A stretch of DNA of 64,000 bases, taken from sequence record NC_052663.1; one strand, given 5' to 3'. The position numbers and the translations under genes were made by a program. The notes beneath the pieces are model-generated. The model was given only the letters and a program-made list of their open reading frames with translations, did no database searches and had not been told where the DNA came from. Numbering within the stretch: position 1 is the stretch's first letter; every line of letters starts with the position of its first letter. Below, one piece after another: positions 8,555-64,000 of the stretch. This DNA is from Escherichia phage VEcB.

Positions 8555-8559
8555 ACAAA

Positions 8560-8588: not shown

Positions 8589-8589
8589 C

Positions 8590-9709: not shown

Positions 9710-9717
9710 TATATCTC

Positions 9718-9746: not shown

Positions 9747-9769
9747 TATATTCACACAATATTTAACTA

Positions 9770-50286: not shown

Positions 50287-50299
50287 GTAAGCCAGCAAA

Positions 50300-50326
50300 T
50301 AAAAACCCGCTTCGGCGGGTTTTCTT
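50300..50326 (+). terminator. Rho-independent terminator after ATPase paralog B
   Basis: AAAACCCGC-TTCG-GCGGGTTTTCTT. Confidence 0.6.
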
Positions 50327-50360
50327 GCATTAATGCCAGATTTAATAAGAGGAGTAGTAG

Positions 50361-51350
50361 ATGGCAGCACCAAAATCATGGGAACAATATAAAGAAGAGT
50401 GTATACCAATAGCAGAGAGTAAGCAAATCCAAATCTTAGGATGGACGGGACAATGGAAAGGGGTCCACACAAAACTTGATTTGTTGTGCCATTGTGGTTA
50501 TAAATGGGATACTACAAGTATTAACAGTTTTAAATGTGGTAGCGGTTGTCCACAATGTAGGAGGAAGAATATAAGGAAGTCACAAACAATGTCCGACGAT
50601 CAACATATTGCAGATTTCTTTTCTACAGGGGAATTTAAGGAAGGCACTATCTTCACTAACACAGGAACACGGGGTAAAGGATGTAGGAATATTATCTGGA
50701 TGGTTGAATGTCCTGTTTGCTCTCATGATGAATATGTTCAAGCAGGTGTTTGTGATGGTAAATTTTACTCTGAAGGAGATAACCTTAAACGAGGGTATAT
50801 TCCGTGTCGTTGTGGGAACTATCGGTATACAGAAGACCAGATCACCTATAGGGTAAAAAAGGAAGTAGAAGGGAAAGGGTATGTCTGGGTAGATTGGATT
50901 ACCAAACCCTCTTCTATAGGTAAGTTTAAATATCTTTGTCTTGTGCATGGTGAGCAGATAGGGAGTGCTCATAATTTATTAAGCCTCGGTCGAGGTTGTC
51001 CTATGTGTGCTGGTCATAGTCAGCAGCAGTTATATATTAATATTGTTAAGGATGATAATATTATAGTTGCTCTTAAGTTTGGTATAGCTAAAGATAGTGA
51101 TAGACGATTAAAAATTCAAAATAGCCGTAATATGTTTCCTATGGAGCGTATTTGTTTATATGATTTTAGCACAGTAAAACAATGTAAGGCTGCTGAAAGA
51201 GCTATAAAGAAAAAATTAAAAACTGGTATTTTAACGGAAAGAGAGTTGAAAGACGGTTATACAGAAACAGTAAGTGTTTCTGATTTGGAAAATCTTCAAA
51301 AAATTATTACACAATATGGTGGCAAATTAGTATACAGTAAGGAGATGTAA
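50361..51350 (+). CDS. Zinc-ribbon-rich protein, possibly nuclease/homing-endonuclease-like
   Basis: Several CxxC pairs (CGSGCPQC, CPVCSHDE, CPMC); RBS AAGAGGAG. Confidence 0.3.
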   Translation: MAAPKSWEQYKEECIPIAESKQIQILGWTGQWKGVHTKLDLLCHCGYKWDTTSINSFKCGSGCPQCRRKNIRKSQTMSDDQHIADFFSTGEFKEGTIFTNTGTRGKGCRNIIWMVECPVCSHDEYVQAGVCDGKFYSEGDNLKRGYIPCRCGNYRYTEDQITYRVKKEVEGKGYVWVDWITKPSSIGKFKYLCLVHGEQIGSAHNLLSLGRGCPMCAGHSQQQLYINIVKDDNIIVALKFGIAKDSDRRLKIQNSRNMFPMERICLYDFSTVKQCKAAERAIKKKLKTGILTERELKDGYTETVSVSDLENLQKIITQYGGKLVYSKEM

Positions 51351-51902
51351 ATGCGGATTACTGATAAGTATGTGTTCTTCTTTTCAGCAAAAGATGAATT
51401 TAGCAACTGGTATCTATCATCTTTTATTGAACCTTTAGCACCCAAGTATAATAATTCTATTACAAGTTCTGTTGAATTTACTTGTGTGGAACAATATATG
51501 ATGTGGAGAAAAGCATGTTTGTTTTATGATTACAGTATTGCATCTTCTATTTTAACCGGAGATCTAAGATATACAGGAGAAAAAGAACAAGCATATTATA
51601 AGCGACTAGGCAGATTAGTTAAAGATTATGATGAAGATACCTGGACTTCTTTACGGGAGAAGATTGTCAAACGTGGTTTGTATCTTAAATACACACAAAA
51701 TGAAGATCTCAAAAATAAACTTATAACCTACGCAGATAAGGAGTTCGTAGAGGCAAGCCCTTATGATTCTATTTATGGTATCAAAATGGGGATGTGGGAT
51801 CGTGACGTGGAAAATAAGGACTGTTGGAAAGGACAAAATCTTTTAGGAAAATGGCATACAGACCTTGCTGTTTATCTAAAAGCACAATCTGATATTTCCT
51901 GA
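51351..51902 (+). CDS. NADAR-domain (YbiA-like) protein
   Basis: Motifs FFFSAKDEFSNWYLSSF and W..G.NLLGKWHTDL match the NADAR/DUF1768 family pattern; ATG overlaps the upstream stop. Confidence 0.55.
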   Translation: MRITDKYVFFFSAKDEFSNWYLSSFIEPLAPKYNNSITSSVEFTCVEQYMMWRKACLFYDYSIASSILTGDLRYTGEKEQAYYKRLGRLVKDYDEDTWTSLREKIVKRGLYLKYTQNEDLKNKLITYADKEFVEASPYDSIYGIKMGMWDRDVENKDCWKGQNLLGKWHTDLAVYLKAQSDIS

Positions 51903-52099
51903 TATTTTGAAAATTTTTATTTTTATAAAAAGGGGTGTGGGTTTCATGTACGGAAATTCACCCTCTGAATAATATATTCAGAGTAAATATTATTTTGTAC
52001 TCTGTTAATAAATTATTTAATTTGTTTGTTGGATTATGATATCTGGTTTTTAAAAGGCATACTATCTCTTAACTACTATTTATAACAGAACAGTAAAAT

Positions 52100-52330
52100 C
52101 ATTTTTATAAAAAGGACAAAATTATTTAAAGTTTTTACAGATTTTTGGATACAAATTTTGAAAATGAAAAGTTCAAGTTTGGTCAAAATTATTTAAAGTT
52201 TTTGTATGTATTTCTATCCATATTTTGAAAATGAAAACTTCAATTTTTTAAAAATTCCCCAGTTTATTTAAAGTTTTTTTGCCTTTTTCCGTAGAAAAAT
52301 GAAAAATGAAAAGTTCAATTTCGTGTTTTT
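52100..52330. repeat. Three tandem ~65-70-bp direct repeats in an AT-rich non-coding region
   Basis: Each unit carries AAATTATTTAAAGTTTTT and TTTTGAAAATGAAAAGTTCAA; TTTTTATAAAAAGG also occurs twice upstream. Confidence 0.6.
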
Positions 52331-52339
52331 ATAGGTGTG

Positions 52340-52455
52340 CTAATGAGAATCATTTTCGTTTGTAAATGAGAATCATTATCATTTAACTATGTAAGTGATA
52401 ATCATTCTCAGTAAGAGAATGAGAATCATTAGCAAATGAGAATTTTATCATTTAG
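52340..52455. promoter_or_regulatory. Cluster of five 13-bp palindromes AATGAGAATCATT (and variants) resembling the Fur-box core
   Basis: Copies at ~52342, 52365, 52397 (inverted), 52430, 52434; the 52362-52380 copy matches 16/19 positions of GATAATGATAATCATTATC. Confidence 0.5.
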
Positions 52456-52714
52456 AGAATAACGCGCAGGGGTGGTGTTTGTCTCGCGCTCCCGTGTCCC
52501 CTCGCCATACAATAAGAATAGCATAACCAACAACAAAAGCAAGCGATTATTTTTATCTTTACATTTCTTTACAAATTTATTTTAGACGAGCTACCGGCGA
52601 TCAACCTTCCAACCAGTGCCCCCTGGTATGTTAGCCCCGCCTTTACGCCGTGGGGGTGGCGCTTCCTCTTCTGTATGTAAAACAGTATAAGCCCGATCCC
52701 TGGGCTTGTCAAGA

Positions 52715-53062
52715 TTATTTTTTGTTTTCTTGCCAGGATAGGACACCTAACCAAAAATACATGTCGCCCCGCGCCCCTGGTGGGATCTTGCTTTCCCCGC
52801 CGCCACTGCAAGCCCATAGATAACCATTTGCGAACGTATCAAAATGATCTATTTCTTCCACCTTATGATCGCCCAGGTTGAGAACGGTTTCAACCTTTAA
52901 GCCCGTTGCGCTTGCTACCTGGTGCACCGTGCCGCCTTGCCAGCCCAATGAGTGCATGAGGTGTAAAGTAGTATTTGTCATGGTATCGCCCTTTCTTTGA
53001 TGTGCGCCCTGGTTGGCGCGGTAGAAAGATAATAGCCCCTTTCCTTTATAGATAGCAAGCAA
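52715..53062 (-). CDS. Hypothetical protein inside a GC-rich island (true start possibly the internal Met MTNTT)
   Basis: ORF track; local GC clearly above the window average. Confidence 0.3.
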   Translation of the reverse strand: MLAIYKGKGLLSFYRANQGAHQRKGDTMTNTTLHLMHSLGWQGGTVHQVASATGLKVETVLNLGDHKVEEIDHFDTFANGYLWACSGGGESKIPPGARGDMYFWLGVLSWQENKK

Positions 53063-53248
53063 AAAAGAAATGAAAAAAGATTAAAAAAGGGGTTGACGTT
53101 CCTCACCTGGTAGCGTATTATTCATCTTGTCGAGGGGGGCGAGGCACAACGACAATAAACAAAAGGAGGGCGCAATGTAGGACGGGCAAAGGTGAGGATC
53201 TCCACAATCCACCGTCACAATAACATTACTTATAAAAGGTTGATAACG

Positions 53249-53344
53249 ATGGTCAAGAAAGAAAACAGCTTGACGGTTGGAACGATTAACGCTATCATTC
53301 TCGCCGTTCCATTTTGGATTGTAGTTGCGGTTATTATTTTCTAA
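53249..53344 (+). CDS. Small hydrophobic peptide (31 aa), not in the ORF track
   Basis: ATG downstream of TTGACG-N17-TATTAT promoter-like sequence; single TM-like helix. Confidence 0.25.
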   Translation: MVKKENSLTVGTINAIILAVPFWIVVAVIIF

Positions 53345-53353
53345 AAAATATTC

Positions 53354-53413
53354 TTGACAACGTTTTTTAATCTGATAAGATGTATCACATAGGGCGGGAA
53401 ATGGTTTCCCGCC
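53354..53413 (+). promoter_or_regulatory. Sigma70-type promoter (TTGACA ... TAAGAT) plus conserved leader hairpin GGCGGGAAA-TGG-TTTCCCGCC
   Basis: -35 TTGACA, 16-nt spacer, -10 TAAGAT; perfect 9-bp stem with 3-nt loop starting near the predicted +1. Confidence 0.6.
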
Positions 53414-53435
53414 AAATCAAAGAAAGGGTAATGCA

Positions 53436-53798
53436 ATGAGCAAGCAAATCAATACTATCATGTTAAACCTGGTATCTTTCCGCGACGACGTGAAAAATCT
53501 TCCACGTGATGCAGTGGATGCACGGATCGAAAGCTATCGCTCACAGATCGCAACGCTACCGCTAAAACGTGATCAACATGCCGCTAATATGATGCTTAAT
53601 GCTATGCTTAAAAAGATGATTCAATGTGATCTTACCCTGGCTTATGAATATGCTGGCGATCTCTTTGTAACATATAGCAAGCCCGTACCAGGTATGAGCA
53701 CAACCGAAGAATTGCATGCCTTAAATCTGCGACAAGATGCATGGGATAACATGCGCCGTGTTATGGTATGGGTAGAAAGCGGTAAAATTTACGAATAA
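53436..53798 (+). CDS. Hypothetical early protein
   Basis: ORF track; preceded by sigma70 promoter plus conserved leader hairpin. Confidence 0.5.
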   Translation: MSKQINTIMLNLVSFRDDVKNLPRDAVDARIESYRSQIATLPLKRDQHAANMMLNAMLKKMIQCDLTLAYEYAGDLFVTYSKPVPGMSTTEELHALNLRQDAWDNMRRVMVWVESGKIYE

Positions 53799-53804
53799 AA
53801 ACGG

Positions 53805-53856
53805 TTGACATTGCACTAAAACCTGATAAACTATCTTAAAGCGGGAATAGTTCCCG
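53805..53856 (+). promoter_or_regulatory. Sigma70-type promoter (TTGACA ... TAAACT) plus hairpin variant AGCGGGAA-TA-GTTCCCGCT
   Basis: Same architecture as 53354-53413. Confidence 0.5.
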
Positions 53857-53875
53857 CTTACATAGGATAAAACTT

Positions 53876-54023
53876 TATGAAACAATATGTAATGAGTATT
53901 CACACCAAAAACGGCGCTACTGTTACGACTCCGGCACGGTTTGCACTTGTAAACCGTTGCAAGAGACTAAAACGAGAGCTAAAAAACAACCGTGCAACGG
54001 GCTTTAAACGCTGGGGAGGATAA
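53876..54023 (+). CDS. Candidate mini-ORF region (two overlapping ~43-aa frames, one Cys-rich, one basic); which is translated is unresolved
   Basis: Follows promoter plus hairpin at 53805-53856; weak RBS. Confidence 0.2.
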
Positions 54024-54025
54024 TC

Positions 54026-54286
54026 TTGTTTTTTCTAAAAGTTTTTGATAATGTGATCGCTTTTGAACATGCTACAACGTTCGACCTGGCGAGATACGCT
54101 ATCAGGTTTAAAGATAATGTTTATCCCCGTGCTGGCGGCGGTTACACTATTTTTAATCATCGTAATTCCCAACTAACGGATATAACTAATCCAGATCCGG
54201 GCGTGTATCGCATAGGCTGGCTACCGTCAAAAGACGCGGCAAGCATGTTTAAGGTATGTAAACTACTAACAGAAGAGGCGAACTAA
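54026..54286 (+). CDS. Hypothetical early protein (TTG start)
   Basis: GGGGAGGA RBS 5 nt upstream of TTG. Confidence 0.4.
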   Translation: MFFLKVFDNVIAFEHATTFDLARYAIRFKDNVYPRAGGGYTIFNHRNSQLTDITNPDPGVYRIGWLPSKDAASMFKVCKLLTEEAN

Positions 54287-54287
54287 C

Positions 54288-54842
54288 ATGGGGCGTGAGT
54301 ATGTGATCCAGTCCTGGGTAAAGCATGACGCTAATGATCCGCGCATAATACCAGATGACATGATCGATCACATGGTAGGGTATAGCGGGGAGCAGATAGG
54401 AAATCGAGCGGCAAAGAGCAACGGCAACACAAAGGCGCGATCCGTTCGCCCTGGTTGGCTGGCAAATGGTAACGCTGACATTGCAAGCGCCGCAGATCCA
54501 AGCGATGACGCTAAAAATAATCCCTTATACAGTATTGATCCGGCTTTTAAGGTGTTGGAAGAGTATCCCGCTAAATTAGCCGCACTAGATAAAGCATACG
54601 AAGAAAAACGGGTGGCATGGACGGTATACAACACCGCTAAAATGGTGCTAGATGCAAAATTGATTAAAGCCCAGGAGAAGATCAATAAACTTGTTGCAGT
54701 AGCGCAAGAGGAAGACCAGGACGACCAGGAGGAAGAGGAAGAAATCATGCCTACCCTGGAAGAGGAAGAGATCCAGCCATACATGCCGACGGAAGAGGAA
54801 AAAAGACAAGCCCTAAAAAATTATGAAAATTGTATTGTGTAA
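54288..54842 (+). CDS. Hypothetical early protein with strongly acidic C-terminal tail
   Basis: C-terminal EEDQDDQEEEEEIMPTLEEEEIQ. Confidence 0.45.
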   Translation: MGREYVIQSWVKHDANDPRIIPDDMIDHMVGYSGEQIGNRAAKSNGNTKARSVRPGWLANGNADIASAADPSDDAKNNPLYSIDPAFKVLEEYPAKLAALDKAYEEKRVAWTVYNTAKMVLDAKLIKAQEKINKLVAVAQEEDQDDQEEEEEIMPTLEEEEIQPYMPTEEEKRQALKNYENCIV

Positions 54843-54845
54843 GGC

Positions 54846-54951
54846 TTGACATATGCAAACAAGCCCCGTAATATGTACCACATAAAGCGGGGCAACGCCC
54901 CATAAGGTGAAATAAAAAATCACTTGACACCTGAAATCAGTAAGCTATAAT
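54846..54951 (+). promoter_or_regulatory. Tandem promoters: TTGACA-N17-TAATAT with hairpin variant (GCGGGGC-AAC-GCCCC), then consensus TTGACA-N16-TATAAT
   Basis: Two consensus -35 hexamers 78 bp apart, both upstream of the 59-aa ORF at 54989. Confidence 0.55.
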
Positions 54952-54988
54952 GCTTATATAGATTGAAACATTACTAAGGAATAAAAGC

Positions 54989-55168
54989 ATGGCTATTATT
55001 GCAAAGACTGAGATCGTAGGTTTAGATTCTATCATCCTGGCATATGAGGAAGCTATAGAAATGTATGTGGTTTCCTATGGTGATTATATCCGTGAATATA
55101 AATCTATTGATCTAGCTTTTGAATGCTATATTCGCCAGGTCAATAAAGCCTATGATGATTATCGTTAA
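54989..55168 (+). CDS. Small early protein (59 aa), not in the ORF track
   Basis: ATG with AAGGA RBS; tandem promoters upstream. Confidence 0.4.
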   Translation: MAIIAKTEIVGLDSIILAYEEAIEMYVVSYGDYIREYKSIDLAFECYIRQVNKAYDDYR

Positions 55169-55187
55169 AAGTTTTAGTCTTGTGCTA

Positions 55188-55216
55188 TTGACAACGAACG
55201 ATAGTACAAGCATAAT
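55188..55216 (+). promoter_or_regulatory. Sigma70-type promoter (TTGACA-N17-CATAAT)
   Basis: Consensus -35; upstream of 55264..55629. Confidence 0.5.
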
Positions 55217-55263
55217 AACTTTTATCGGGAATACTCCTAACTAATCAAAAGAGATTAAAGACT

Positions 55264-55629
55264 ATGGCTAAAAATATCAATGTTTCTGCTTATGCTACCC
55301 TGGCTAACACTGCTAAAATTGAACTATCCAGCATTGAAGCGGTACATATTAGCGCCCGTCGCTGGTTTCAAAAGTCTTATGGTAACACTTATTTCTCTTT
55401 GATGGTTGACGTTGAGATCGGCGGTAAACTGATTGAAGTCGTTAACGTTCCGTTTCAATATGGCTACGGGGATCATTTTGATACCGTTGCCCTAGAAGAG
55501 TTTAGCAAGGTTATCAACCTGGAAGGTAAAGAATTTTCAAATTATGCCTACCTTTCCCGTTTTTGCCGTGACAATGGGATCACTGTATACAGTCATGCAA
55601 GCGATGTTAAACGTAAAAAAGATTTATAA
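55264..55629 (+). CDS. Hypothetical early protein
   Basis: ORF track; own promoter (TTGACA ... CATAAT). Confidence 0.45.
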   Translation: MAKNINVSAYATLANTAKIELSSIEAVHISARRWFQKSYGNTYFSLMVDVEIGGKLIEVVNVPFQYGYGDHFDTVALEEFSKVINLEGKEFSNYAYLSRFCRDNGITVYSHASDVKRKKDL

Positions 55630-55635
55630 AAAGCA

Positions 55636-55696
55636 TTGACAGCACGAATAAAAAGCATATAATACTTATATCGAGAGCGGGAATAGTTCCCGCCTC
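55636..55696 (+). promoter_or_regulatory. Consensus sigma70 promoter (TTGACA-N16-TATAAT) plus hairpin GAGCGGGAA-TA-GTTCCCGCCTC
   Basis: Perfect -35 and -10 hexamers; hairpin near +1. Confidence 0.6.
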
Positions 55697-55717
55697 ACTG
55701 AAAAAGAGATTAACATC

Positions 55718-55957
55718 ATGGCTAAATCTAAAATGTTCTTAGGTCACAAAAACAAAACTCATTGGAATGTAAGCCTTTGGATCAACAACGATGAAGGTTT
55801 TTATAATCTTGCGCGTGAATTTATCGCAGCTAACACCAATAAGAATGACGCAGCGCGTGATATGATGTTATTTCTTGAAAGTATGGATCAAGATAAAACG
55901 CCAGACGGTTACAAGTTCAGTAAAACCGCGATCCGTGCCGCTATGGTTGGAATGTAA
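55718..55957 (+). CDS. Hypothetical early protein
   Basis: ORF track; promoter TTGACA-N16-TATAAT plus hairpin upstream. Confidence 0.45.
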   Translation: MAKSKMFLGHKNKTHWNVSLWINNDEGFYNLAREFIAANTNKNDAARDMMLFLESMDQDKTPDGYKFSKTAIRAAMVGM

Positions 55958-56052
55958 AGGAGACATAAAAATGAAACATCGTTCGACCTATCTCACAAAA
56001 CGTTTTAGCTTAGATCATAAATTGGGCTATTACGGAAGAAATAGAAAATAAT

Positions 56053-56112
56053 TTGACAACGTTTTAAATTAGTGTAAGATATATCACATAGGGCGGGAAA
56101 TGGTTTCCCGCC
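56053..56112 (+). promoter_or_regulatory. Sigma70-type promoter plus canonical leader hairpin; near-identical copy of the 53354-53430 element
   Basis: About 45 bp (ATCACATAGGGCGGGAAATGGTTTCCCGCCAAATCAAAGAAAGG) identical to the leader of 53436..53798. Confidence 0.6.
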
Positions 56113-56134
56113 AAATCAAAGAAAGGTTATCATT

Positions 56135-56362
56135 ATGGCTATCGTTATTGTTCGCGTATCCGGTACGGTTGGAATCTCTCAGGTAGTAGCAGTTATCACA
56201 GAGAAGAAAGGGGATGATCTTCACTCCTCCTTGAATAGCTGGGCGGTCGCTAACTTTGGGCAATGGTCGAGCGTTGAGTACATCGAAGCCTACCAGGTGC
56301 CGACGATTAGCCTAACCGATCTAAATGTTGATCGCTTGTTGTGCCTGGATGGATTAAACTAA
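56135..56362 (+). CDS. Hypothetical early protein
   Basis: ORF track; promoter/leader nearly identical to that of 53436..53798. Confidence 0.45.
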   Translation: MAIVIVRVSGTVGISQVVAVITEKKGDDLHSSLNSWAVANFGQWSSVEYIEAYQVPTISLTDLNVDRLLCLDGLN

Positions 56363-56370
56363 AAATAATC

Positions 56371-56427
56371 TTGACAAGATAACTAAAATCAGTAAAATGT
56401 AATGCATAGGGCGGCAATAGTGCCGCT
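56371..56427 (+). promoter_or_regulatory. Sigma70-type promoter (TTGACA-N16-TAAAAT) plus hairpin GGGCGGCA-ATA-GTGCCGCTC
   Basis: Same architecture; hairpin variant shared with 60181-60237. Confidence 0.55.
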
Positions 56428-56449
56428 CATAGTAAGAGAGATTATCAAA

Positions 56450-56665
56450 ATGGCTAATATCCGCACACTGTTAAAAAATGCAAGTCAAGTTTTATTTTCA
56501 GATGACGAGTATTTCAACAAAGACATTACAGGCGTGAAAAATTTAAAAGACGTGAAGGATGTTATCGGTATCCGTGGATCTTTACGTAAAGGTGACATAT
56601 ACGGTAACAAGGTGCAATATAAACTGTCAAAAGATTATGATTTTACTTTGACATTTATTTCATAA
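56450..56665 (+). CDS. Hypothetical early protein (start at internal ATG after the leader hairpin)
   Basis: Track ORF N-terminus is the translated hairpin; ATG with AGAGAG RBS. Confidence 0.45.
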   Translation: MANIRTLLKNASQVLFSDDEYFNKDITGVKNLKDVKDVIGIRGSLRKGDIYGNKVQYKLSKDYDFTLTFIS

Positions 56666-56671
56666 AACCGC

Positions 56672-56732
56672 TTGCAATACTGCAAAAATAAAGTAAACTG
56701 TATTCATCAAGGCGGTGGAATAGCTCACCGCC
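56672..56732 (+). promoter_or_regulatory. Sigma70-type promoter (TTGCAA-N16-TAAACT) plus hairpin GGCGGTG-GAATAGCT-CACCGCC
   Basis: Same architecture with a divergent loop. Confidence 0.5.
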
Positions 56733-56756
56733 TAACAAAGAGAAGAGGAAAACATC

Positions 56757-56927
56757 ATGATCACTTTCGCCACCCGTGAAGCCGCTCGCAACGTTGCACG
56801 TAAAGTTAATGCCGCCAACCTGGGCGCTACGCTTAAAGCCCCGGTAAAAGATGAATCAGGAAAATGGATCTTCCCTGGTCTGCGTCACGCTGATAAGCTG
56901 GGAACATTAACGTTAAAAAATAAATAA
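56757..56927 (+). CDS. Small early protein (56 aa), not in the ORF track
   Basis: ATG with AAGAGGAAAA RBS; promoter plus hairpin upstream. Confidence 0.4.
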   Translation: MITFATREAARNVARKVNAANLGATLKAPVKDESGKWIFPGLRHADKLGTLTLKNK

Positions 56928-56934
56928 TATCCGC

Positions 56935-56993
56935 TTGACAGTAGCATGATTTATAAGTAAAGTAACAACAACGGCGGGAAATGGTTTCCCGCC
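56935..56993 (+). promoter_or_regulatory. Sigma70-type promoter (TTGACA-N17-TAAAGT) plus canonical hairpin GGCGGGAAA-TGG-TTTCCCGCC
   Basis: Canonical hairpin identical to the 53392 and 61294 copies. Confidence 0.55.
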
Positions 56994-57013
56994 ATCAATA
57001 AAGAGATAAGATT

Positions 57014-57373
57014 ATGAAATCAGCAAAAGCAATTAAAACTTACATTGTGTCGGCTATTTCTTTTGAAGGTACTACAACAGAAAAAGAAAAGATCACCGAA
57101 CTGATGCGCCGTTTTAACTCTGAATACTGGTATCCCGATAATCAAAAACGTTACAATTATAACGTGATCAAGGCGATAGCCTCATGGTTACAAGGTTTAC
57201 CGTCAGACATTAACATCGCCTTTGATTATAACGAGATTGATCATTTATTAATTGAATGGAAGTACATAAAAGAAACAAGCAAAGAAACAACCGTTACCCG
57301 TGAGCGGGAAAATTATTGGTTATATATTGCAAGCATGATCGTAATCCTGGCAAAACAGCATAACGTGGCGTAA
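57014..57373 (+). CDS. Hypothetical early protein
   Basis: ORF track; promoter plus canonical hairpin upstream. Confidence 0.45.
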   Translation: MKSAKAIKTYIVSAISFEGTTTEKEKITELMRRFNSEYWYPDNQKRYNYNVIKAIASWLQGLPSDINIAFDYNEIDHLLIEWKYIKETSKETTVTRERENYWLYIASMIVILAKQHNVA

Positions 57374-57388
57374 TTAAGAGGAAGAAAC

Positions 57389-57526
57389 ATGAACGCATCA
57401 CAGCAGATCGAAAAATTCAACCGCAGCAAGGCGCGTAAAGATTGGAACGAAGAGATCACCAAAAAAGGCGACAAGCGGAACAAAACAAAAAGAGATCGCA
57501 GCACAAAAAGATACTGGAACGAATAA
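57389..57526 (+). CDS. Small highly basic protein (45 aa), not in the ORF track
   Basis: ATG with AAGAGGAAG RBS; K/R-rich; immediately followed by a rho-independent terminator. Confidence 0.4.
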   Translation: MNASQQIEKFNRSKARKDWNEEITKKGDKRNKTKRDRSTKRYWNE

Positions 57527-57530
57527 CAAA

Positions 57531-57556
57531 AAAGGGCGCAATAAGCGCCCTTTTAG
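57531..57556 (+). terminator. Rho-independent terminator
   Basis: GGGCGC-AATAA-GCGCCC followed by TTTT. Confidence 0.6.
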
Positions 57557-57644
57557 CTTATATAGAGGCTTGTTACCCATAGGCAATGGTAACGCCAGGA
57601 TAAGCCTATAAACCACGTTAGACAGCTTTACAGGAGCTTTAAAA

Positions 57645-57827
57645 ATGAAATTAGACGAAATAAGCAAGGCACTAGCCCAGGGGCAAAGGTTATGCGCCCG
57701 ATATCGTGATCAATATGGCTTCATAACCAGCGGCGTGATCCTGGGGATTGAAGGCAATAAGATTTTTATTGACACGTTGAAAAACGTTGTATATAGTGAC
57801 AATATAATCTCAATAAAACATATATGA
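57645..57827 (+). CDS. Hypothetical small protein
   Basis: ORF track. Confidence 0.4.
   Translation: MKLDEISKALAQGQRLCARYRDQYGFITSGVILGIEGNKIFIDTLKNVVYSDNIISIKHI
57769..57797 (+). promoter_or_regulatory. Sigma70-type promoter (TTGACA-N17-TATAGT) embedded in the 3' end of ORF 57645..57827
   Basis: Consensus hexamers; drives the signal-peptide gene at 57836. Confidence 0.45.
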
Positions 57828-57835
57828 GGCAAGAA

Positions 57836-58237
57836 ATGAAAAAATTATTGATCGCTGGTTTAATCTCTTTTGGCATGGTTGGAACATCTAGCGCGGCGAT
57901 ATCCTCCACAGTAGCAGAATTAAGCGCCGTTGATGCAATGGAAAACGTCATGCTTATTAATAATGCGATCCCCGATGAAATCATGGAGGATTCACACATG
58001 ATCGCTTATGGTGCTGTTACACAACTAACGGCAAAAATAGATAAATCTATTGTTAACGGCTTAAATGAAGATGTGCCATGTGAAATTATTACCAGTGTGC
58101 TGACTACTCAAAATTTTACGCCGTGGTTAAAAAGTATTCAAAAAGTACACAGTACAGCCGCAGATCGTAGTAATGAAAAACTAGTGTCAGCACTTGCAAC
58201 GTATACCCTAGCAAAATGCACCGAGATAAAAGATTGA
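57836..58237 (+). CDS. Predicted secreted/periplasmic protein
   Basis: Signal peptide MKKLLIAGLISFGMVGTSSA; promoter TTGACA-N17-TATAGT inside the 3' end of the upstream ORF. Confidence 0.45.
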   Translation: MKKLLIAGLISFGMVGTSSAAISSTVAELSAVDAMENVMLINNAIPDEIMEDSHMIAYGAVTQLTAKIDKSIVNGLNEDVPCEIITSVLTTQNFTPWLKSIQKVHSTAADRSNEKLVSALATYTLAKCTEIKD

Positions 58238-58262
58238 CAACATAGAAAGCACGTTATAAGAT
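58234..58262 (+). promoter_or_regulatory. Sigma70-type promoter (TTGACA-N17-TAAGAT), no hairpin
   Basis: Consensus -35; upstream of 58285..58587. Confidence 0.5.
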
Positions 58263-58284
58263 ACACACAACAAAGGAGAACTAC

Positions 58285-58587
58285 ATGAACGGCATAGCTA
58301 AAACGTTTTTTCTTTTTTCTGGTGTAAATGATCCATCAATAAAAGTCGATAGTGTAAAAGAAAACAATACTATCACCGCTAAATTGTTTCAAGATGAAAC
58401 AAATAACGTGCTAATCATTAATCTTAAAGAAATAACGAAAGGTTATTATACTATTGCTTACCATGCAATCTATCATGCTGGTACTAGTGAGGAAGTGCAA
58501 ACAAGCAACAACGAAAGCGCGGCGCTACCTGGTGATCTGGTGCTGGGCGTTATCAGTTTAATTGTCAATGATTTTTTTAAGGAGTAA
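58285..58587 (+). CDS. Hypothetical protein
   Basis: ORF track; promoter TTGACA ... TAAGAT upstream; RBS AAAGGAG. Confidence 0.45.
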   Translation: MNGIAKTFFLFSGVNDPSIKVDSVKENNTITAKLFQDETNNVLIINLKEITKGYYTIAYHAIYHAGTSEEVQTSNNESAALPGDLVLGVISLIVNDFFKE

Positions 58588-58591
58588 AACC

Positions 58592-58687
58592 ATGCCCTAT
58601 TTACATTTATTTTTCGGGATCTTATTGTCAGGATCTTTTTTCTTCTGTATACTTGTTTCTATTGTAAACCACGTTTTAAGACATTAA
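58592..58687 (+). CDS. Small hydrophobic peptide (31 aa), not in the ORF track
   Basis: ATG 4 nt after the upstream stop; RBS AAGGAG embedded in the upstream gene end. Confidence 0.3.
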   Translation: MPYLHLFFGILLSGSFFFCILVSIVNHVLRH

Positions 58688-58696
58688 GGAAACAAC

Positions 58697-58816
58697 ATGA
58701 AAATTATTCCCGTACAGTATAGCGTAATAAATCCAGCATATGAGGAAGGAAGGAAAACAAGCATGGTTTTATGTTATATTGCTACTATAGCCATGTTGTT
58801 ATATATTGTGTTTTAA
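58697..58816 (+). CDS. Small peptide with C-terminal hydrophobic helix (39 aa), not in the ORF track
   Basis: ATG with AAGGAAAC RBS. Confidence 0.3.
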   Translation: MKIIPVQYSVINPAYEEGRKTSMVLCYIATIAMLLYIVF

Positions 58817-58845
58817 TAGGTTTTATAGTTGTACGCTTTAAAGGC

Positions 58846-58880
58846 TTGACAATTTTTTGTTATGCTTTAAACTATATCTT
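58846..58880 (+). promoter_or_regulatory. Sigma70-type promoter (TTGACA ... TAAACT)
   Basis: Consensus -35; upstream of 58917..59240. Confidence 0.45.
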
Positions 58881-58916
58881 GAAAACGGCAAAGGCCGCAA
58901 ACAAAAGGGTAAAATT

Positions 58917-59240
58917 ATGAAATCTGTGATCGGTGTTTATTTGGATAACTCTGATTTTTTCTATCATCGCGCTCGTTTCCTTGATGCGATTGAAATGATA
59001 GAATCAGGCTTTAAAGAGTATCGCCTTGCACATGATGACCTGGAAGCATTACAGGGCAATAGTGTTTTTACATTGCAAGCTAAAGCACTATGCAAAAGCC
59101 GAATCGACATTGCGAGCAAAAAGATAGAACGCGGCATGTCCTGGTTGCGCACCGCAGAAATCAACATGGGGCAATGGTACGGCGAAAACTTAGAAAATAA
59201 ACATGCTTTTGTCAATGTAGAAAATATTGAAGATTATTGA
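58917..59240 (+). CDS. Hypothetical early protein (start at internal ATG)
   Basis: Promoter TTGACA at ~58846; RBS AAAGGGTAAAA. Confidence 0.45.
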   Translation: MKSVIGVYLDNSDFFYHRARFLDAIEMIESGFKEYRLAHDDLEALQGNSVFTLQAKALCKSRIDIASKKIERGMSWLRTAEINMGQWYGENLENKHAFVNVENIEDY

Positions 59241-59302
59241 TTGACAGCACACTGAACGGGTAGTATATTGTATCTCATAGAGCGGGGAAATGGTTTCCCC
59301 GC
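59241..59302 (+). promoter_or_regulatory. Sigma70-type promoter (TTGACA-N17-TATATT) plus hairpin GCGGGGAAA-TGG-TTTCCCCGC
   Basis: Same architecture. Confidence 0.55.
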
Positions 59303-59322
59303 CTTAAAAGAAGAGATAAGCT

Positions 59323-59607
59323 ATGAAGATCACAAAAGCACTTTCCAACTATGCAGCACGTCGCGGCTTATGTTTAACCGTTGAAAACCTGGGGAAAGAA
59401 GATTTTTTGTGCTTTTGGGAGCTTGAGAATGATAATGAGTGGATCTTCTCTTATTCTATCTGCGAAGATCAAAACGGTTGTTTATTAACCTGGCGCGGTA
59501 ATATCTATCTACCGGAAGAAATCAAAGAAGAATTGCCAGGCACGATCATGACTGAGAAACAGCTTAAGGAAGTGATTAATTTTGTAGGGCAAAACATTAA
59601 AAAATAA
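59323..59607 (+). CDS. Hypothetical early protein
   Basis: ORF track; promoter plus hairpin upstream. Confidence 0.45.
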   Translation: MKITKALSNYAARRGLCLTVENLGKEDFLCFWELENDNEWIFSYSICEDQNGCLLTWRGNIYLPEEIKEELPGTIMTEKQLKEVINFVGQNIKK

Positions 59608-59608
59608 T

Positions 59609-59668
59609 TTGACACTAGGCAAACAACGTAGTAAAGTTTATCACATAGGGCGGGAAATGGTTTCCCGC
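59609..59668 (+). promoter_or_regulatory. Sigma70-type promoter (TTGACA-N17-TAAAGT) plus hairpin GGGCGGGAAA-TGG-TTTCCCGC
   Basis: Same architecture. Confidence 0.55.
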
Positions 59669-59691
59669 TCACAACAGAAGAGAAACACATC

Positions 59692-59862
59692 ATGATCCCG
59701 ACTATGTTTTACGTATCGCGCAAAGGTCACAATATTTTTTGGTCTGAAGATTTAAATGAAGCCATGACGTTTGCCCGTGATCGTGTTGCTATCGGTGGCG
59801 TTAACATTACTGTAACCGATGAAAACGGCATTGAATACTATAACGGCGACGATGAAGAGTAA
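59692..59862 (+). CDS. Small early protein (56 aa), not in the ORF track
   Basis: ATG with AGAAGAGAAA RBS after promoter plus hairpin. Confidence 0.4.
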   Translation: MIPTMFYVSRKGHNIFWSEDLNEAMTFARDRVAIGGVNITVTDENGIEYYNGDDEE

Positions 59863-59869
59863 TTAATAA

Positions 59870-59890
59870 GGCGGGGGAGTATTCCCCGCC
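59870..59890 (+). promoter_or_regulatory. Leader-type hairpin (GGCGGGGGA-GTA-TTCCCCGCC) without an adjacent consensus promoter
   Basis: Occurs between a stop codon and the RBS of 59910..60179. Confidence 0.4.
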
Positions 59891-59909
59891 GTCAATAAAG
59901 AGGTAAATC

Positions 59910-60179
59910 ATGAAAATATCTTTGGACGTTGCAATCAAGGCCATCGAATCCGGTTACACCCTGGTTAAAGATGATAAGGCTAAAACCGTGCACCACGTTA
60001 ACAAGGAAACAGGCGAAAGCATGATCACATATAAAGCCGCCTACTTTCTCCAATCAGTAGCAGATCCGCGCGTACAACGCCAGGTTACGGCGGCTATTGC
60101 TAAAAAATTATGTGCTTTACAGGGTATAAGTTTTAACGAGATCGCCCCGTGTTTTGACTGGTCGAGCTTGAAAAAATAG
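59910..60179 (+). CDS. Hypothetical early protein
   Basis: ORF track; preceded by a leader-type hairpin without an obvious promoter. Confidence 0.45.
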   Translation: MKISLDVAIKAIESGYTLVKDDKAKTVHHVNKETGESMITYKAAYFLQSVADPRVQRQVTAAIAKKLCALQGISFNEIAPCFDWSSLKK

Positions 60180-60180
60180 T

Positions 60181-60237
60181 TTGACAACAATTATAAATCG
60201 GGTAGAATGTATTTCGTAGGGCGGCAATAGTGCCGCT
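60181..60237 (+). promoter_or_regulatory. Sigma70-type promoter (TTGACA-N16-TAGAAT) plus hairpin GGGCGGCA-ATA-GTGCCGCTC
   Basis: Hairpin identical to the 56408-56427 copy. Confidence 0.55.
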
Positions 60238-60259
60238 CATAACTAAAAGAGAAATCAGC

Positions 60260-60454
60260 ATGGCGCTTAAAAAACTAACAAGCAATACTCGTTGGGATGA
60301 AATCGACGGAGAAGTTTACATTTTCGCCCGTAAACCAGGTGATCAAAAATGGTCAAAGGCTTTTACTTGCCACCCTGCAACAATAGATCTAATAAAAAGT
60401 AAAGGTTTACGTGAAGCGGTAGCAAGAAGTTTACTGATCCCTTATAAAAAATAG
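60260..60454 (+). CDS. Hypothetical small protein (start at internal ATG)
   Basis: Promoter TTGACA-N16-TAGAAT plus hairpin upstream. Confidence 0.4.
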   Translation: MALKKLTSNTRWDEIDGEVYIFARKPGDQKWSKAFTCHPATIDLIKSKGLREAVARSLLIPYKK

Positions 60455-60455
60455 T

Positions 60456-60517
60456 TTGACAATACGCGGTTATCTGGTAAAGTGTACGACATAGGGCGGG
60501 GCAATAAGGCAACGCCC
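60456..60517 (+). promoter_or_regulatory. Sigma70-type promoter (TTGACA-N16-TAAAGT) plus degenerate GC-rich hairpin
   Basis: Same architecture. Confidence 0.45.
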
Positions 60518-60535
60518 ATTAATGAGGGTAGAATC

Positions 60536-60640
60536 ATGTTAGAGAAAATTTTCACGGTTGTAGTAGTTGGCCTGGCGTTATCGGTTGGATTGGTTGCAAC
60601 TATGGCTAACATGATCCTATCTTCCCACGGTATTGGATAA
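60536..60640 (+). CDS. Small hydrophobic peptide (34 aa), not in the ORF track
   Basis: ATG with GAGGG RBS; single TM-like helix. Confidence 0.3.
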   Translation: MLEKIFTVVVVGLALSVGLVATMANMILSSHGIG

Positions 60641-60650
60641 GGTGAATCAA

Positions 60651-60866
60651 ATGATCACGAATAAGACAGGTAAAACAGAATTTTTACGCGGCTTGCAAAT
60701 AGGTAAGCCTGAGATCTGGCATTGCACTAAATCCGCGCATAATGAAATGAAAGATTTTACCGCTACTTTACAACGTGTTAAAATATCTATCACACAGAAA
60801 AAAGCCTTGTTAGTAGTAGAAAACGAGATACCGCAAACCATTATTATTGTCGAGCGTACAGCATGA
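60651..60866 (+). CDS. Hypothetical small protein (start at internal ATG)
   Basis: RBS AAGGTGA. Confidence 0.4.
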   Translation: MITNKTGKTEFLRGLQIGKPEIWHCTKSAHNEMKDFTATLQRVKISITQKKALLVVENEIPQTIIIVERTA

Positions 60867-61249
60867 AAACAGAAATCATTATTGAAATCATCAACGGTTA
60901 TAAAGAAGCCTTTATTTTTGCTGAATCAGCCAGGGATCATGAAGGTAATTTTATTGATAACTTAGACGATTATGATTTTTCAGATCAAGCCCACCAGCGG
61001 ATCATTCATGACGTAGCGGCTTATTGTGATGCCAATGATGCTGCTATCTCTGAGGCAATGAGCGACGGCGCAACAGCAAACCAGATCGGGAATGATTTAC
61101 ATTTTACCCGTAACGGTCACGGCGTAGGCTTTTGGGATCGCCCTGAAATATACACTACTAACACCGCCAACCGCCTAACAAATGCAGCTAAATTAATGCC
61201 ATCGGTGCATGCTTACATTGGTGAAGATAATTTGATTTATATCGAATAA
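60863..61249 (+). CDS. Hypothetical acidic protein
   Basis: ORF track; overlapping stop/start; D/E-rich. Confidence 0.4.
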   Translation: MKTEIIIEIINGYKEAFIFAESARDHEGNFIDNLDDYDFSDQAHQRIIHDVAAYCDANDAAISEAMSDGATANQIGNDLHFTRNGHGVGFWDRPEIYTTNTANRLTNAAKLMPSVHAYIGEDNLIYIE

Positions 61250-61255
61250 AAAGTA

Positions 61256-61314
61256 TTGACACCGATCCCCAATATGGTATTATTTACCACGTAGGCGGGA
61301 AATGGTTTCCCGCC
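61256..61314 (+). promoter_or_regulatory. Sigma70-type promoter (TTGACA-N16-TATTAT) plus canonical hairpin
   Basis: Canonical GGCGGGAAA-TGG-TTTCCCGCC. Confidence 0.6.
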
Positions 61315-61337
61315 AGGTAATCAAAAAGGTAAATACT

Positions 61338-61727
61338 ATGCGCAACCTGGTTTCTGTTTCTAACGTTGAAAAATTTCAATCTTTACAGGGTATCGTTAAC
61401 AACGTAGCGCCTTTTTTAGTCAACGGCTTGATTGCAAAGATGAAAAATAAACATCATGCGGCATGGTCTGCTTACTGCTTTGATAATGATGAAAAAGCGG
61501 CTGAAATGATGTTAAATATGCTGTTAGACAGTGTAGAATCATCTTTACCGGAAAACATCGCAGAAGAGATCACCTATCGTTATAATATGGCGATCACTTA
61601 CCAGGAGGTTGCGCAATTTAATATGATGGACGATGACGAACAACAGGATCAGGAAATGTTTTGGGAGTATGCAGATCGTCAATCGGCTTTTGATGAAAAG
61701 TTAGCAATGTATTATAACGAATATTAA
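61338..61727 (+). CDS. Hypothetical acidic protein (start at internal ATG after the leader hairpin)
   Basis: Promoter TTGACA-N16-TATTAT plus canonical hairpin; acidic tract MMDDDEQQDQEMFWEY; terminator downstream. Confidence 0.45.
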   Translation: MRNLVSVSNVEKFQSLQGIVNNVAPFLVNGLIAKMKNKHHAAWSAYCFDNDEKAAEMMLNMLLDSVESSLPENIAEEITYRYNMAITYQEVAQFNMMDDDEQQDQEMFWEYADRQSAFDEKLAMYYNEY

Positions 61728-61740
61728 TACACGGTAAAAG

Positions 61741-61770
61741 AAAGGGGCGCACTAAGCGCCCTTTTTTTTT
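61741..61770 (+). terminator. Rho-independent terminator
   Basis: GGGGCGC-ACTAA-GCGCCC followed by a T9 run. Confidence 0.7.
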
Positions 61771-62115
61771 GTATTCTTTTTTCACGATGGAAGTAACACG
61801 TAAAGAATAGGCGTAAAGGTGGCGTAAAACAGCCTAAAACCGATTATAACCGCTTAAACAAGGTAGGAATGATTAATCACCTTACCAGGATGAAAAAGCT
61901 GTTATAAAGCTATCTAGGGCGTTTAAAGAACATAGGAAATAATTTGCTTTTTATCTTGCCTTTTATCCTGCTTTTGATTATTATTATGGAACGGGCGGCA
62001 CCTGGGGACAGGGGAAGATAATCACCGGAAGATCCCGCTATATATTGATAGCTAACATCTATCAAACAACAAAACATCAAAGGAATAAACTATCAAATCT
62101 TTACAATCTTATCTA

Positions 62116-62144
62116 TTGACCGATAAATCATAACCGTTTAATAT
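62116..62144 (+). promoter_or_regulatory. Sigma70-type promoter (TTGACC-N17-TAATAT)
   Basis: Near-consensus hexamers upstream of 62193..62429. Confidence 0.45.
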
Positions 62145-62192
62145 TGTTTTTAGAGGGTAGAACATACCCAAAACGAAAACAGGAAAAAGAAA

Positions 62193-62429
62193 ATGAAAGA
62201 AGTCATGATCCTCAAAAAATCACCTATTTTACGTGGTGGCTTTATCGCTTACTCTGATGATCTGTTAATTGCAACGGTTGCAAAAATACTAAAATCAGAA
62301 GAGGATAGTAAAAACGGCGTTTATCGTATCTGTTTCACCCGTGGGAAATTGCAAGGCAAGATCGCCTATGCTTTTGATTTACAAGATGTAAATGATAAAA
62401 TCTGCGCTGTTATTGATTATGCAAAATAA
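62193..62429 (+). CDS. Hypothetical small protein
   Basis: Promoter TTGACC-N17-TAATAT upstream. Confidence 0.4.
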   Translation: MKEVMILKKSPILRGGFIAYSDDLLIATVAKILKSEEDSKNGVYRICFTRGKLQGKIAYAFDLQDVNDKICAVIDYAK

Positions 62430-62441
62430 TTAACTTTCTTA

Positions 62442-62470
62442 TTGACACCGGATCACGCTTACATTATTAT
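62442..62470 (+). promoter_or_regulatory. Sigma70-type promoter (TTGACA-N17-TATTAT) with degenerate leader (CACGTAGGGCAAATCATTTT)
   Basis: Consensus -35; leader keeps the CAC-TAGGGC start but lost the stem. Confidence 0.5.
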
Positions 62471-62516
62471 TTATCACGTAGGGCAAATCATTTTAAACGG
62501 TAAACGAGGAATCACC

Positions 62517-62900
62517 ATGAGCAATATCATCAACCTGGCGGCTACTGTAAACGGTAAAGACTTTAACGGCGCTGTAGATCGTGATCCTATGTGGTGCTTG
62601 TCAGTATTTAAAGGTGATTTAGTTGAAGTTAGAACAACCGAAGGGTATAGCGATGATTATAAATGCGAGATCCATTTACATAACTGGTACACGGGTAAAA
62701 CTTATGCGCTGAATCACGCGTTTATCGGGAAAATTGAATATCGTGAGATGATCGACGAAGAAACGGGGCAAGATTTTAGCCAGCATGTTTATATTCGTTC
62801 CGAAACATTAGCCGAACGTTTGATCGAGAAAATGAAAGCAAAAAATAAAATTAATTTATCTCATTGGATTGATATAACAAACGATCCTGCTTATCAGTAA
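62517..62900 (+). CDS. Hypothetical protein (start at internal ATG)
   Basis: Promoter TTGACA-N17-TATTAT upstream; terminator downstream. Confidence 0.45.
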   Translation: MSNIINLAATVNGKDFNGAVDRDPMWCLSVFKGDLVEVRTTEGYSDDYKCEIHLHNWYTGKTYALNHAFIGKIEYREMIDEETGQDFSQHVYIRSETLAERLIEKMKAKNKINLSHWIDITNDPAYQ

Positions 62901-62912
62901 ATAACATTTCAT

Positions 62913-62945
62913 ACCAGGGCGCACAAAGCGCCCTTTCTTTTTACC
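62913..62945 (+). terminator. Rho-independent terminator closing the small-gene array
   Basis: AGGGCGC-ACAAA-GCGCCCT followed by TTCTTTTT. Confidence 0.6.
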
Positions 62946-63149
62946 TAAATAAAGATGATAGCTTTTACCTATCAAAAACGTTCACCGAAAAAAGTGAATA
63001 GATCGCGGTATCGAGCTAATCAAGGAGCAGATGAATAACCATACCATGAAGATCATAAGGCGTTTACAACGTGTTTTAGACCGCTTGTTTTTAATTTCTT
63101 CATGCAACTATCTGGCAAAAACAGCCTTTTTCTTGTCTTTCCTCTTAAA

Positions 63150-63222
63150 TAATAATCATTCTCATTTATAGCTGATTATTTATGCAATAAACTGAATAAT
63201 GTAATAATGATAATCATTCTTA
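63150..63222. promoter_or_regulatory. Two further Fur-box-like palindromes
   Basis: AATAATCATTCTCATT at ~63151 and TAATAATGATAATCATTCT at ~63202 (16/19 to the Fur-box consensus, core AATGATAATCATT exact). Confidence 0.45.
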
Positions 63223-64000
63223 ACTTAAGGCCATCTAACCTATAAAATAATAAGCTATCTAACTAAATTAAAGCTAATTATCTCACCTTTATTTATAACT
63301 TACTGTTACTATCTCATTGATAACCTTATATTAAACAACAATAACTAATATAAATCATTACCAAGCTAAATATAATCTATCTAACCTTTAAAACTATAAC
63401 TATAATCTATTGAATTATTGCACAAAGTAACTATTAAATCGTTAGTAACATTACTAAATAATTCATATCCTATCTATTTATGATCTAACCTTTACCTTCT
63501 TATCTATTACCTAAGTAATCATTTCATACAATAACTATAACAAGAAATATAATTCGCAAGCGTATCATTAGCAGCCTATGCCGGACACATAGGCGGCTAA
63601 TAATAACGCAACTACACACCCCACATAATAACCATCACCGATAGTTATTATTTGTGCTTATGTAGCTTGCAACAATTGCAAGCGCAACAATATACATGGT
63701 ATATTGTATTCCCTTACATTGTTGCGGTGCGTTATTATTAGCTAATGTTTAGAACATTGGCTATAATATAAGCTATCCAATAATAAACATAATGAATAAT
63801 GATACTGAAATGAATAATGACACTGATGATCATAATGCGCCACCTTCCAGGGGGCGCTATGTGAACACAAAGAAATCTTTCTTGTCAAGAAAAATATTAC
63901 CACTATTGCGCAAAATTATTTTTATCTGAATAGATGATTTTTCATACTATTGCCCCCTTGATTATTACTATTTGTTGAGTATAGTTATCCCTATTTGTTG

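Follow-up and report, generated by a model that had tools for sequence, protein, structure and literature searches.

Fur-box-like palindromes near the terminal repeat of a phi92-like phage and their match to Fur operators of Escherichia coli

Fur boxes belong to the textbook knowledge on iron regulation in bacteria. On phage DNA such a box is part of the Fur-regulated stx1 promoter, where a single operator belongs to a toxin cargo gene of a temperate phage. Multicopy Fur boxes derepress the Fur regulon, which is the principle of the Fur titration assay (FURTA). For Fur clusters of E. coli, secondary sites at a 6-bp offset were described, and 83% of these clusters overlap with sigma-70 -35/-10 elements (PMC2189734). 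The injection stop signal of phage T5 is thought to act via host DNA-binding proteins; it was attributed to paired DnaA boxes, and Fur is unmentioned (bioRxiv 10.1101/866236). Furthermore, an unexplained induction of iron-uptake genes in iron-replete medium by virulent phages was reported (PMC5563952; PMC6024767).

Here, a window of 64,000 nucleotides (the whole stretch of DNA analysed) was investigated regarding two Fur-box-like palindromes near its right end. The stx1 promoter on lambdoid prophages also has a Fur box on phage DNA; in contrast, the phage considered here is virulent and has ~13 boxes, which are located in gene-free control DNA and terminal repeats. The likeness to FURTA is that many high-affinity boxes on replicating DNA are expected to lower free Fur. 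However, FURTA is a cloning artefact of the laboratory, whereas here the boxes would be a natural viral feature. PAK_P4 (Pseudomonas) and NCTC 12673 (Campylobacter) are likewise virulent phages perturbing the Fur regulon (PMC5563952; PMC6024767), but PAK_P4 is without a Fur-box cluster and hence does not use the same mechanism.

The T5 injection stop signal resembles the present case: it is a gene-free, repeat-rich region tied to a terminal repeat, and its AAATGAGAATCATT core is the same as in the arrays of this phage. T5-type AAATGAGAATCATT repeats in a large untranslated region are present in five copies at 52339-52455 and in two copies at 63145-63221. In contrast, the terminal repeat comprises ~10 kb in T5 and 343 bp here, and the left terminal repeat of T5 has the signal at its inner end, whereas the locus of the two boxes is outside its repeat. 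Two-step DNA transfer is a T5 feature and is not known for phi92-like phages. A full-text literature search revealed no paper in which virulent phages are described as having conserved sets of Fur boxes in control regions or terminal repeats, and no transcriptome or binding experiment for phi92-like phages.

The two boxes and their surroundings

The window is the right-hand 64 kb of the genome of a phi92-like virulent myophage. The phi92-like genus Justusliebigvirus (subfamily Stephanstirmvirinae) comprises virulent myophages of E. coli and Salmonella with ~147 kb. With the final 1.6 kb and the final 13 kb of the window as queries, more than 100 phage records matched, those of Justusliebigvirus best; Phage alia shows 96.6% identity over 13 kb of the window end. 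A plasmid origin was rejected, as no match was obtained in PLSDB.

All sites were scored with a weight matrix derived solely from 13 Fur operator sites of E. coli K-12. The features of the window needed here are the following.

52339-52455, unstranded: sister locus, tandem array of five boxes (four scored and a weaker fifth copy)
62517-62900: last array gene, Phage_30_8 family (Pfam PF06019, E 6e-29)
62916-62934, plus strand: intrinsic terminator of the last array gene (terminator scan), where the terminal stretch starts
63031-63171, plus strand: probable small gene of 46 codons with the strong Shine-Dalgarno sequence AAGGAG at 63022-63027; its last codons overlap box 1
63145-63163, unstranded: Fur box 1, TTAAATAATAATCATTCTC, 13.2 bits with the K-12-only matrix
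63203-63221, unstranded: Fur box 2, AATAATGATAATCATTCTT, 16.7 bits with the K-12-only matrix; 13-nt core at 63206-63218
63220-63248, plus strand: promoter-like element TTAACT-17-TAAAAT, 9.2 bits; its -35 hexamer adjoins box 2
63978-64000: approach to the direct terminal repeat, which is annotated in UAB_1 and phi92

A preliminary description of this DNA had named two strings, and both were located where it had placed them, AATAATCATTCTCATT at 63151-63166 and TAATAATGATAATCATTCT at 63202-63220. The core AATGATAATCATT at 63206-63218 is, as described there, exact to the Fur-box core. The first string is better seen as part of a 19-nt run at 63148-63166 (AATAATAATCATTCTCATT), in which 19 of 19 nucleotides are the same as in the K-12 ryhB operator. 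In addition, 15 of 15 nucleotides at 63149-63163 are the same as in the fhuA operator. A weaker overlapping site (63151-63169, 6.3 bits) lies 6 bp rightward of box 1, and a strong site with a weaker one at a 6-bp offset is the layout common to box 1, ryhB and fhuA. By this additional site box 1 shows the hexamer arrangement of a Fur operator, i.e. a row of three or more GATAAT-like hexamers and secondary sites which overlap at an offset of 6 or 3 bp. For box 2 no secondary site above 3 bits was seen.

Ten Fur-controlled promoter regions of K-12 (fepA-fes, fepD-entS, fepB-entC, fhuA, ryhB, fur, tonB, fecA, cirA and fhuF) were used for calibration. Host sites left out of the matrix reached 6-19 bits. 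Compared to the 19-bp consensus GATAATGATAATCATTATC, the best sites in the ten regions have 2-7 mismatches and the phage boxes 2-5 (three in box 2, five in box 1). The former naming as Fur-box-like palindromes is thus justified: the phage sites match validated operators as well as those match each other, and their scores are within the range of validated operators.

The locus differs from the ryhB and fhuA operators in its context. The host sites overlap the -10/-35 elements of a defined promoter of an iron-regulated gene, whereas a convincing promoter, a downstream gene and a RyhB-like RNA are all absent at the phage locus; moreover, a virulent phage carries the element, and outside the box no homology is seen. 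A RyhB-type sRNA gene beside box 1 was rejected, as the identity to the ryhB locus ends at 19 nt and no RyhB, no other iron-related RNA and no credible family was detected in an Rfam scan of 50000-64000 with E values up to 1. A captured host promoter was rejected as well, since identity to host operators is at most 19 nt at the locus of the two boxes. When the sister array was compared with 5,426 E. coli genomes by blastn, just short matches with E values of at least 1 were obtained.

The locus is a stretch of ~1 kb between the last gene of the small-gene array and the terminal repeat. The direct terminal repeat of 343 bp, annotated in Salmonella phage UAB_1 and phi92, starts approximately at the end of the window; according to the annotation of these relatives, the two boxes are ~760-830 bp outside of it. 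Past the terminator no gene is annotated in the terminal stretch of relatives, except for the 46-codon open reading frame. The nearest downstream gene, whose position the preliminary description had left to be checked, was found from relatives past the 343-bp repeat, ~650-730 bp beyond the window. In circularly permuted records, e.g. alia, a single gap of 1.8 kb free of annotated genes comprises the stretch, the repeat and the leader of the first genes. A 23-nt tandem duplication (TTATTACTATTTGTTG / TTATCCCTATTTGTTG) at 63962-64000, right before the repeat start of the relatives, is absent in alia and UAB_1.

An AT-rich and non-coding setting had been proposed for the boxes. The tail is AT-rich (30% GC), but the region is not entirely non-coding, as the probable 46-codon gene ends inside box 1. 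In ten genomes five variable sites were found in the first 23 codons of this gene, all of them synonymous, and the first 32 residues of its product are 90-100% identical in 54 phage records. It is annotated in some relatives only, e.g. in phage EmilieFrey, and is absent in the sister genus Phapecoctavirus.

The element TTAACT-17-TAAAAT is a weak candidate for a Fur-controlled promoter. With the same promoter model 9.5 bits were obtained for the ryhB promoter and 13-15 bits for the strong early promoters of the phage. Promoter candidates near the boxes reached 7-9 bits, and hits in this region were no commoner than in shuffles (two scans). For an overlap of the boxes with promoters, both scans gave only candidates at chance level. 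Between the candidate promoter and the terminal repeat downstream of it, the list of open reading frames contains no gene.

Further sequence elements were observed in the surroundings. Between the boxes, at 63181-63198, an inverted repeat TATGCA-N6-TGCATA is kept in both genera, with TGAATA as right arm in the window; possibly, another protein binds there. In a very AT-rich stretch of ~300 bp at 63230-63515, about eight iteron-like copies of (T)ATCTAAC(C)/TATCTNNN are located; the counterpart of this stretch in Phapecoctavirus is a different, shorter sequence. A multi-stem structured element at 63574-63742, ~240 bp before the terminal repeat, contains a 15-bp long-range stem (63596-63610 with 63728-63742) and shows compensatory double changes at six base pairs between Justusliebigvirus and Phapecoctavirus.

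Frequency and retention of the boxes

The preliminary description would have been contradicted by a motif no commoner in this DNA than in shuffled sequences of the same composition. This control was carried out and the motif proved to be far commoner. With two mismatches allowed at most, 27 copies of the 13-mer core were counted in the window, compared to 6.0 expected; none of 100 shuffles reached 27. For the 19-bp consensus with three mismatches at most, five sites (40471, 52339, 52362, 52415 and 63203) compare with 0.05 expected, and four sites with at least 16 bits in the whole window with 0.09 expected from shuffles. As local control, 2000 dinucleotide-preserving shuffles of the AT-rich tail (62935-64000, 30% GC) were used. 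Two sites of at least 13 bits were obtained in 0.25% of them, one site of at least 16.7 bits in 0.15%, and two sites of at least 13 bits within the 161-nt core in none.

In the complete genome of UAB_1 (147,769 bp) nine sites with at least 16 bits were found, with 0.27 expected from shuffles, and eight of the nine fall in the three gene-free places listed below.

UAB_1 136041-136158 (window 52339-52455): 19.4, 19.4, 13.8 and 19.5 bits; fifth copy as two weaker overlapping sites of 10.9 and 11.0 bits
UAB_1 146582-146658 (window 63145-63221): 11.9 and 16.7 bits
UAB_1 terminal repeat, 74-92 and 263-293, at both genome ends (just beyond the window): 23.4 bits; best 19.5 bits

The two groups inside the terminal repeat are stronger than box 1 and box 2. 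Altogether ~13 boxes are present per virion DNA: two at the locus studied here, five or six at 52339-52455 and three per copy of the terminal repeat. In the window the four scored boxes of the sister array start at 52339, 52362, 52391 and 52415 with 21.0, 19.4, 13.8 and 19.5 bits and a spacing of 23-29 bp; its gap holds four sites of at least 12 bits, compared to 0.05 expected locally.

It is extremely improbable that the palindromes are chance products of AT-rich DNA without function. The region has 27-30% GC and AT-rich DNA yields Fur-like hexamers, but both the local and the genome-wide shuffles reject this reading, and it is also opposed by the clusters in three gene-free places and by the retention in a second genus. 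The former argument that two distant non-coding loci speak for function agrees with the shuffles, with the three gene-free clusters and with the boxes of the second genus.

Ten Justusliebigvirus genomes were compared. Their whole tail is ~90% identical, and footprinting within the genus is therefore uninformative. Where the sequence of the boxes varies, it stays compatible with Fur (AATAAT versus AATGAT; GATAAT to GAGAAT). Box 2 is invariant in nine of the ten genomes and has the still Fur-compatible change from GATAAT to GAGAAT in the tenth.

For comparison across genera, phAPEC8, ZCKP1 and DIJ07P2 of the sister genus Phapecoctavirus were used, in which the identity of the gap to Justusliebigvirus is 48%. 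Boxes were found at the aligned positions of box 1 (12.7 bits) and of both groups of the terminal repeat, and the array at 52339 has its counterpart at 82605-82716 of DIJ07P2. The gap of phAPEC8 holds four sites of at least 12 bits, with 0.07 expected. Box 2 is degenerate in Phapecoctavirus, as are the neighbouring promoter-like hexamers. The overlapping small gene is absent there and box 1 is kept nevertheless; thus, coding constraint is not the reason for the retention of box 1. Identity inside the boxes across the genera ranks in the top 13-36% of 19-nt windows, which is above average, not exceptional. The retention of high-scoring sites is a stronger argument than this identity.

Isolated Fur-like sites were also seen. 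The site at 40471-40489 (CAAAATGATAATCTTTATC, 15.5 bits) has its UAB_1 counterpart inside a UvrD-like helicase gene and is kept in DIJ07P2 with 13.1 bits; its retention may be due to coding constraint rather than function. The only UAB_1 site with at least 16 bits outside gene-free DNA (24985-25003, 17.7 bits, outside the window) is located at the start of a glutaredoxin gene, upstream of the ribonucleotide reductase cluster.

Other phages and the binding protein

No phage homologue of Fur was detected with tblastn when E. coli Fur was searched against the window and two complete relatives (E values above 6). Thus, host Fur is the likely binder. Arrays in other phages were sought in IMG/VR with an exact Fur-box pattern as seed, a scan which shows that arrays exist elsewhere, not how common they are. 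Of 120 loci examined among the matches listed, 18 have at least three strong boxes within 400 bp, and these loci have nothing but boxes in common with the present phage. The gaps of the other phages are each far above shuffle expectation; since they were chosen via one perfect box, at least one site in each is preselected.

Klebsiella jumbo phage RaK2 has about six boxes with a spacing of 23-26 bp at 225598-225717, in a gene-free gap of 1.5 kb that precedes a small-gene array. The T5-like phage chee24 also has boxes (9506-9669), and the left terminal repeat has its inner end 300-460 bp away from them. T5 itself has tandem AAATGAGAATCATT repeats at 9549-9712, within the annotated injection stop signal (9140-10149), and these repeats reach 10.8-18.2 bits as Fur boxes. 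Five boxes with 19-22.5 bits are present in the uncultured contig L124 (5783-5909). In contig L131 a box is at the -35 position of a promoter with the extended -10 element TGnTATAAT, and in contig L035 one lies between a strong promoter and the first gene. In L131, L041, L035 and L078 the boxes are just upstream of open reading frames resembling terminase subunits, as judged by eye.

Unrelated phages having nothing in common except box arrays point to a host protein. From the sequences, host Fur is likely to bind the boxes. An operator or iteron for a phage-encoded DNA-binding protein, merely resembling a Fur box, was considered as well and is regarded as very unlikely. Dozens of small early genes of this phage are without assigned function, and repeated palindromes in gene-free phage DNA often bind phage proteins. 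Nevertheless, no Fur-like protein is encoded, 15-19 nt are identical to host operators, and the top scores were obtained with a host-only matrix; furthermore, with boxes in phages without other DNA similarity, the same specificity would need several origins.

DnaA boxes (TTWTNCACA) were also counted. Nine are present in the window, compared to 12 expected, and none in either gap. A DnaA-box mechanism as proposed for T5 was hence rejected for the gaps of the window.

Possible roles of Fur binding

The boxes match host operators in sequence, are placed non-randomly and are retained across two genera. We favour, with a probability of about 45%, the reading that they are genuine, selectively maintained sites of host Fur which serve local repression or a roadblock of transcription. 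We infer occupancy by Fur from the match to host operators; repression or a roadblock as outcome is suggested more weakly. Abundant Fe2+-Fur would fill the boxes on DNA entry in an iron-replete cell, and the bound protein would repress or block transcription starting in, or reading into, the terminal region. Box 2 would cover the -35 side of TTAACT-17-TAAAAT, and box 1, the copy of the ryhB operator, would act from its place just past the last terminator and the small gene. Events in the terminal region would thereby be coupled to the iron and Fur status of the host and to the number of Fur molecules relative to phage DNA copies.

A role as operator is supported by the box at the -35 position in L131, by the box between promoter and first gene in L035, and by the fact that box 2 adjoins a promoter-like element of 9.2 bits, near the score of the ryhB promoter. 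Several observations count against it: the promoters are at chance level, and no gene or known RNA follows; the nearest conserved promoter-like block is separated from the boxes of the terminal repeat by 200 bp or more; and the discrete, non-overlapping spacing of 23-29 bp in the array is unlike host operators.

This spacing leads to another explanation, in which the boxes mainly soak up Fur and local transcription is incidental. Hundreds of genome copies with ~13 strong boxes each would deplete free Fe2+-Fur, iron-uptake genes would be derepressed, and iron would be supplied to the phage ribonucleotide reductases. We consider this doubtful. Strong boxes side by side, 23-29 bp apart in gene-free DNA, as seen at 52339-52455, in RaK2 and in L124, are in favour of it, and so are the distribution over several loci without consistent relation to promoters and the iron-dependent reductases of class Ia and class III encoded by UAB_1. 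Derepression by multicopy boxes, as in the titration assay, is a further point in favour. The pool of Fur comprises ~5,000-10,000 molecules per cell; the explanation presumes that copy number times box number exceeds this pool, which weakens it. In addition, three box positions are kept between the genera, which is not required of a pure sponge. The induction of iron-uptake genes by other virulent phages (PMC5563952; PMC6024767) fits, but PAK_P4, the best-documented inducer, has no Fur-box cluster: the best site in its 93-kb genome reached 11.3 bits, and none is within five mismatches of the consensus. An extension of this idea to PAK_P4 was rejected for that reason.

Comparable to the use of IHF at lambda cos, Fur could instead form a nucleoprotein structure serving a DNA transaction at the genome end, such as the pausing or anchoring of DNA on entry, packaging together with the formation of the terminal repeat, or initiation of replication. 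Boxes inside and beside the terminal repeat are consistent with such an architectural role, as are the association with terminal repeats in the T5 injection stop signal and chee24, the boxes upstream of the terminase-like frames of L131, L041, L035 and L078 (by eye), and the neighbourhood with iteron-like ATCTAAC repeats and a structured element with compensatory changes. The array at 52339 is 11.7 kb (7.9%) from the right end of UAB_1, and the T5 array is also located at 7.9% of its genome. On the other hand, the DnaA boxes stressed for the T5 signal are missing in the gaps of the window, the terminal repeat has 343 bp instead of 10 kb, and for the array of RaK2 no link to a terminus is known. 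Since large gene-free regions are frequently found near termini anyway, the association may be indirect. In consideration of both sides, the architectural role is held to be unlikely.

If Fur binds the boxes, a strictly lytic phage would read or manipulate the iron regulator of its host. A wider reading, possible and at present tentative, is that unrelated virulent enterobacterial phages independently acquired operator-grade Fur-box arrays in their gene-free control DNA and thereby use the abundant host Fur as a component of the infection programme. It would cover phi92-like and phAPEC8-like myophages, T5-like siphophages, RaK2 and several uncultured contigs, the arrays being often at or near terminal repeats. 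If true, the arrays might be used as a Fur sponge, as a timer based on the ratio of phage DNA to Fur, or for a host factor pausing DNA entry. In the latter case, Fur would be the protein bound by the repeats in the T5 injection stop signal, with the five-box array at 52339 as counterpart of this signal. Binding of Fur could also bear on the question why some virulent phages induce iron-uptake genes of the host in iron-rich medium, and on the identity of the host factor at the T5 signal. For phage therapy, iron limitation in the infected host would change the Fur occupancy of the sites.

Some minor observations concern the sister locus and the records of relatives. Three direct repeats of ~60 bp, each consisting of ATTATTTAAAGTTTTT and the palindrome TTGAAAATGAAAAGTTCAA, adjoin the left side of the array at 52118-52330; their annotation in alia is repeat_region only. 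A non-coding block of ~300 bp at 52455-52760 shows almost 100% identity between the two genera, with much more diverged flanks. A very strong promoter on the minus strand (TTGACA-17-TATACT, 52712-52684) is directed through this block toward the Fur array. A stable RNA from the block was rejected, as the fold of the minus strand was no better than those of shuffles (z +0.94). The small open reading frame at 52715-52927 (minus strand, 70 aa, motif LGWQGGTVHQV, without Pfam match) is highly conserved between the genera. Finally, the GenBank records MG065645, MG065689, MG065639 and MG065656, labelled 'Campylobacter phage' with C. jejuni as host, are ~93% identical to this coliphage lineage, and their host assignment appears doubtful.
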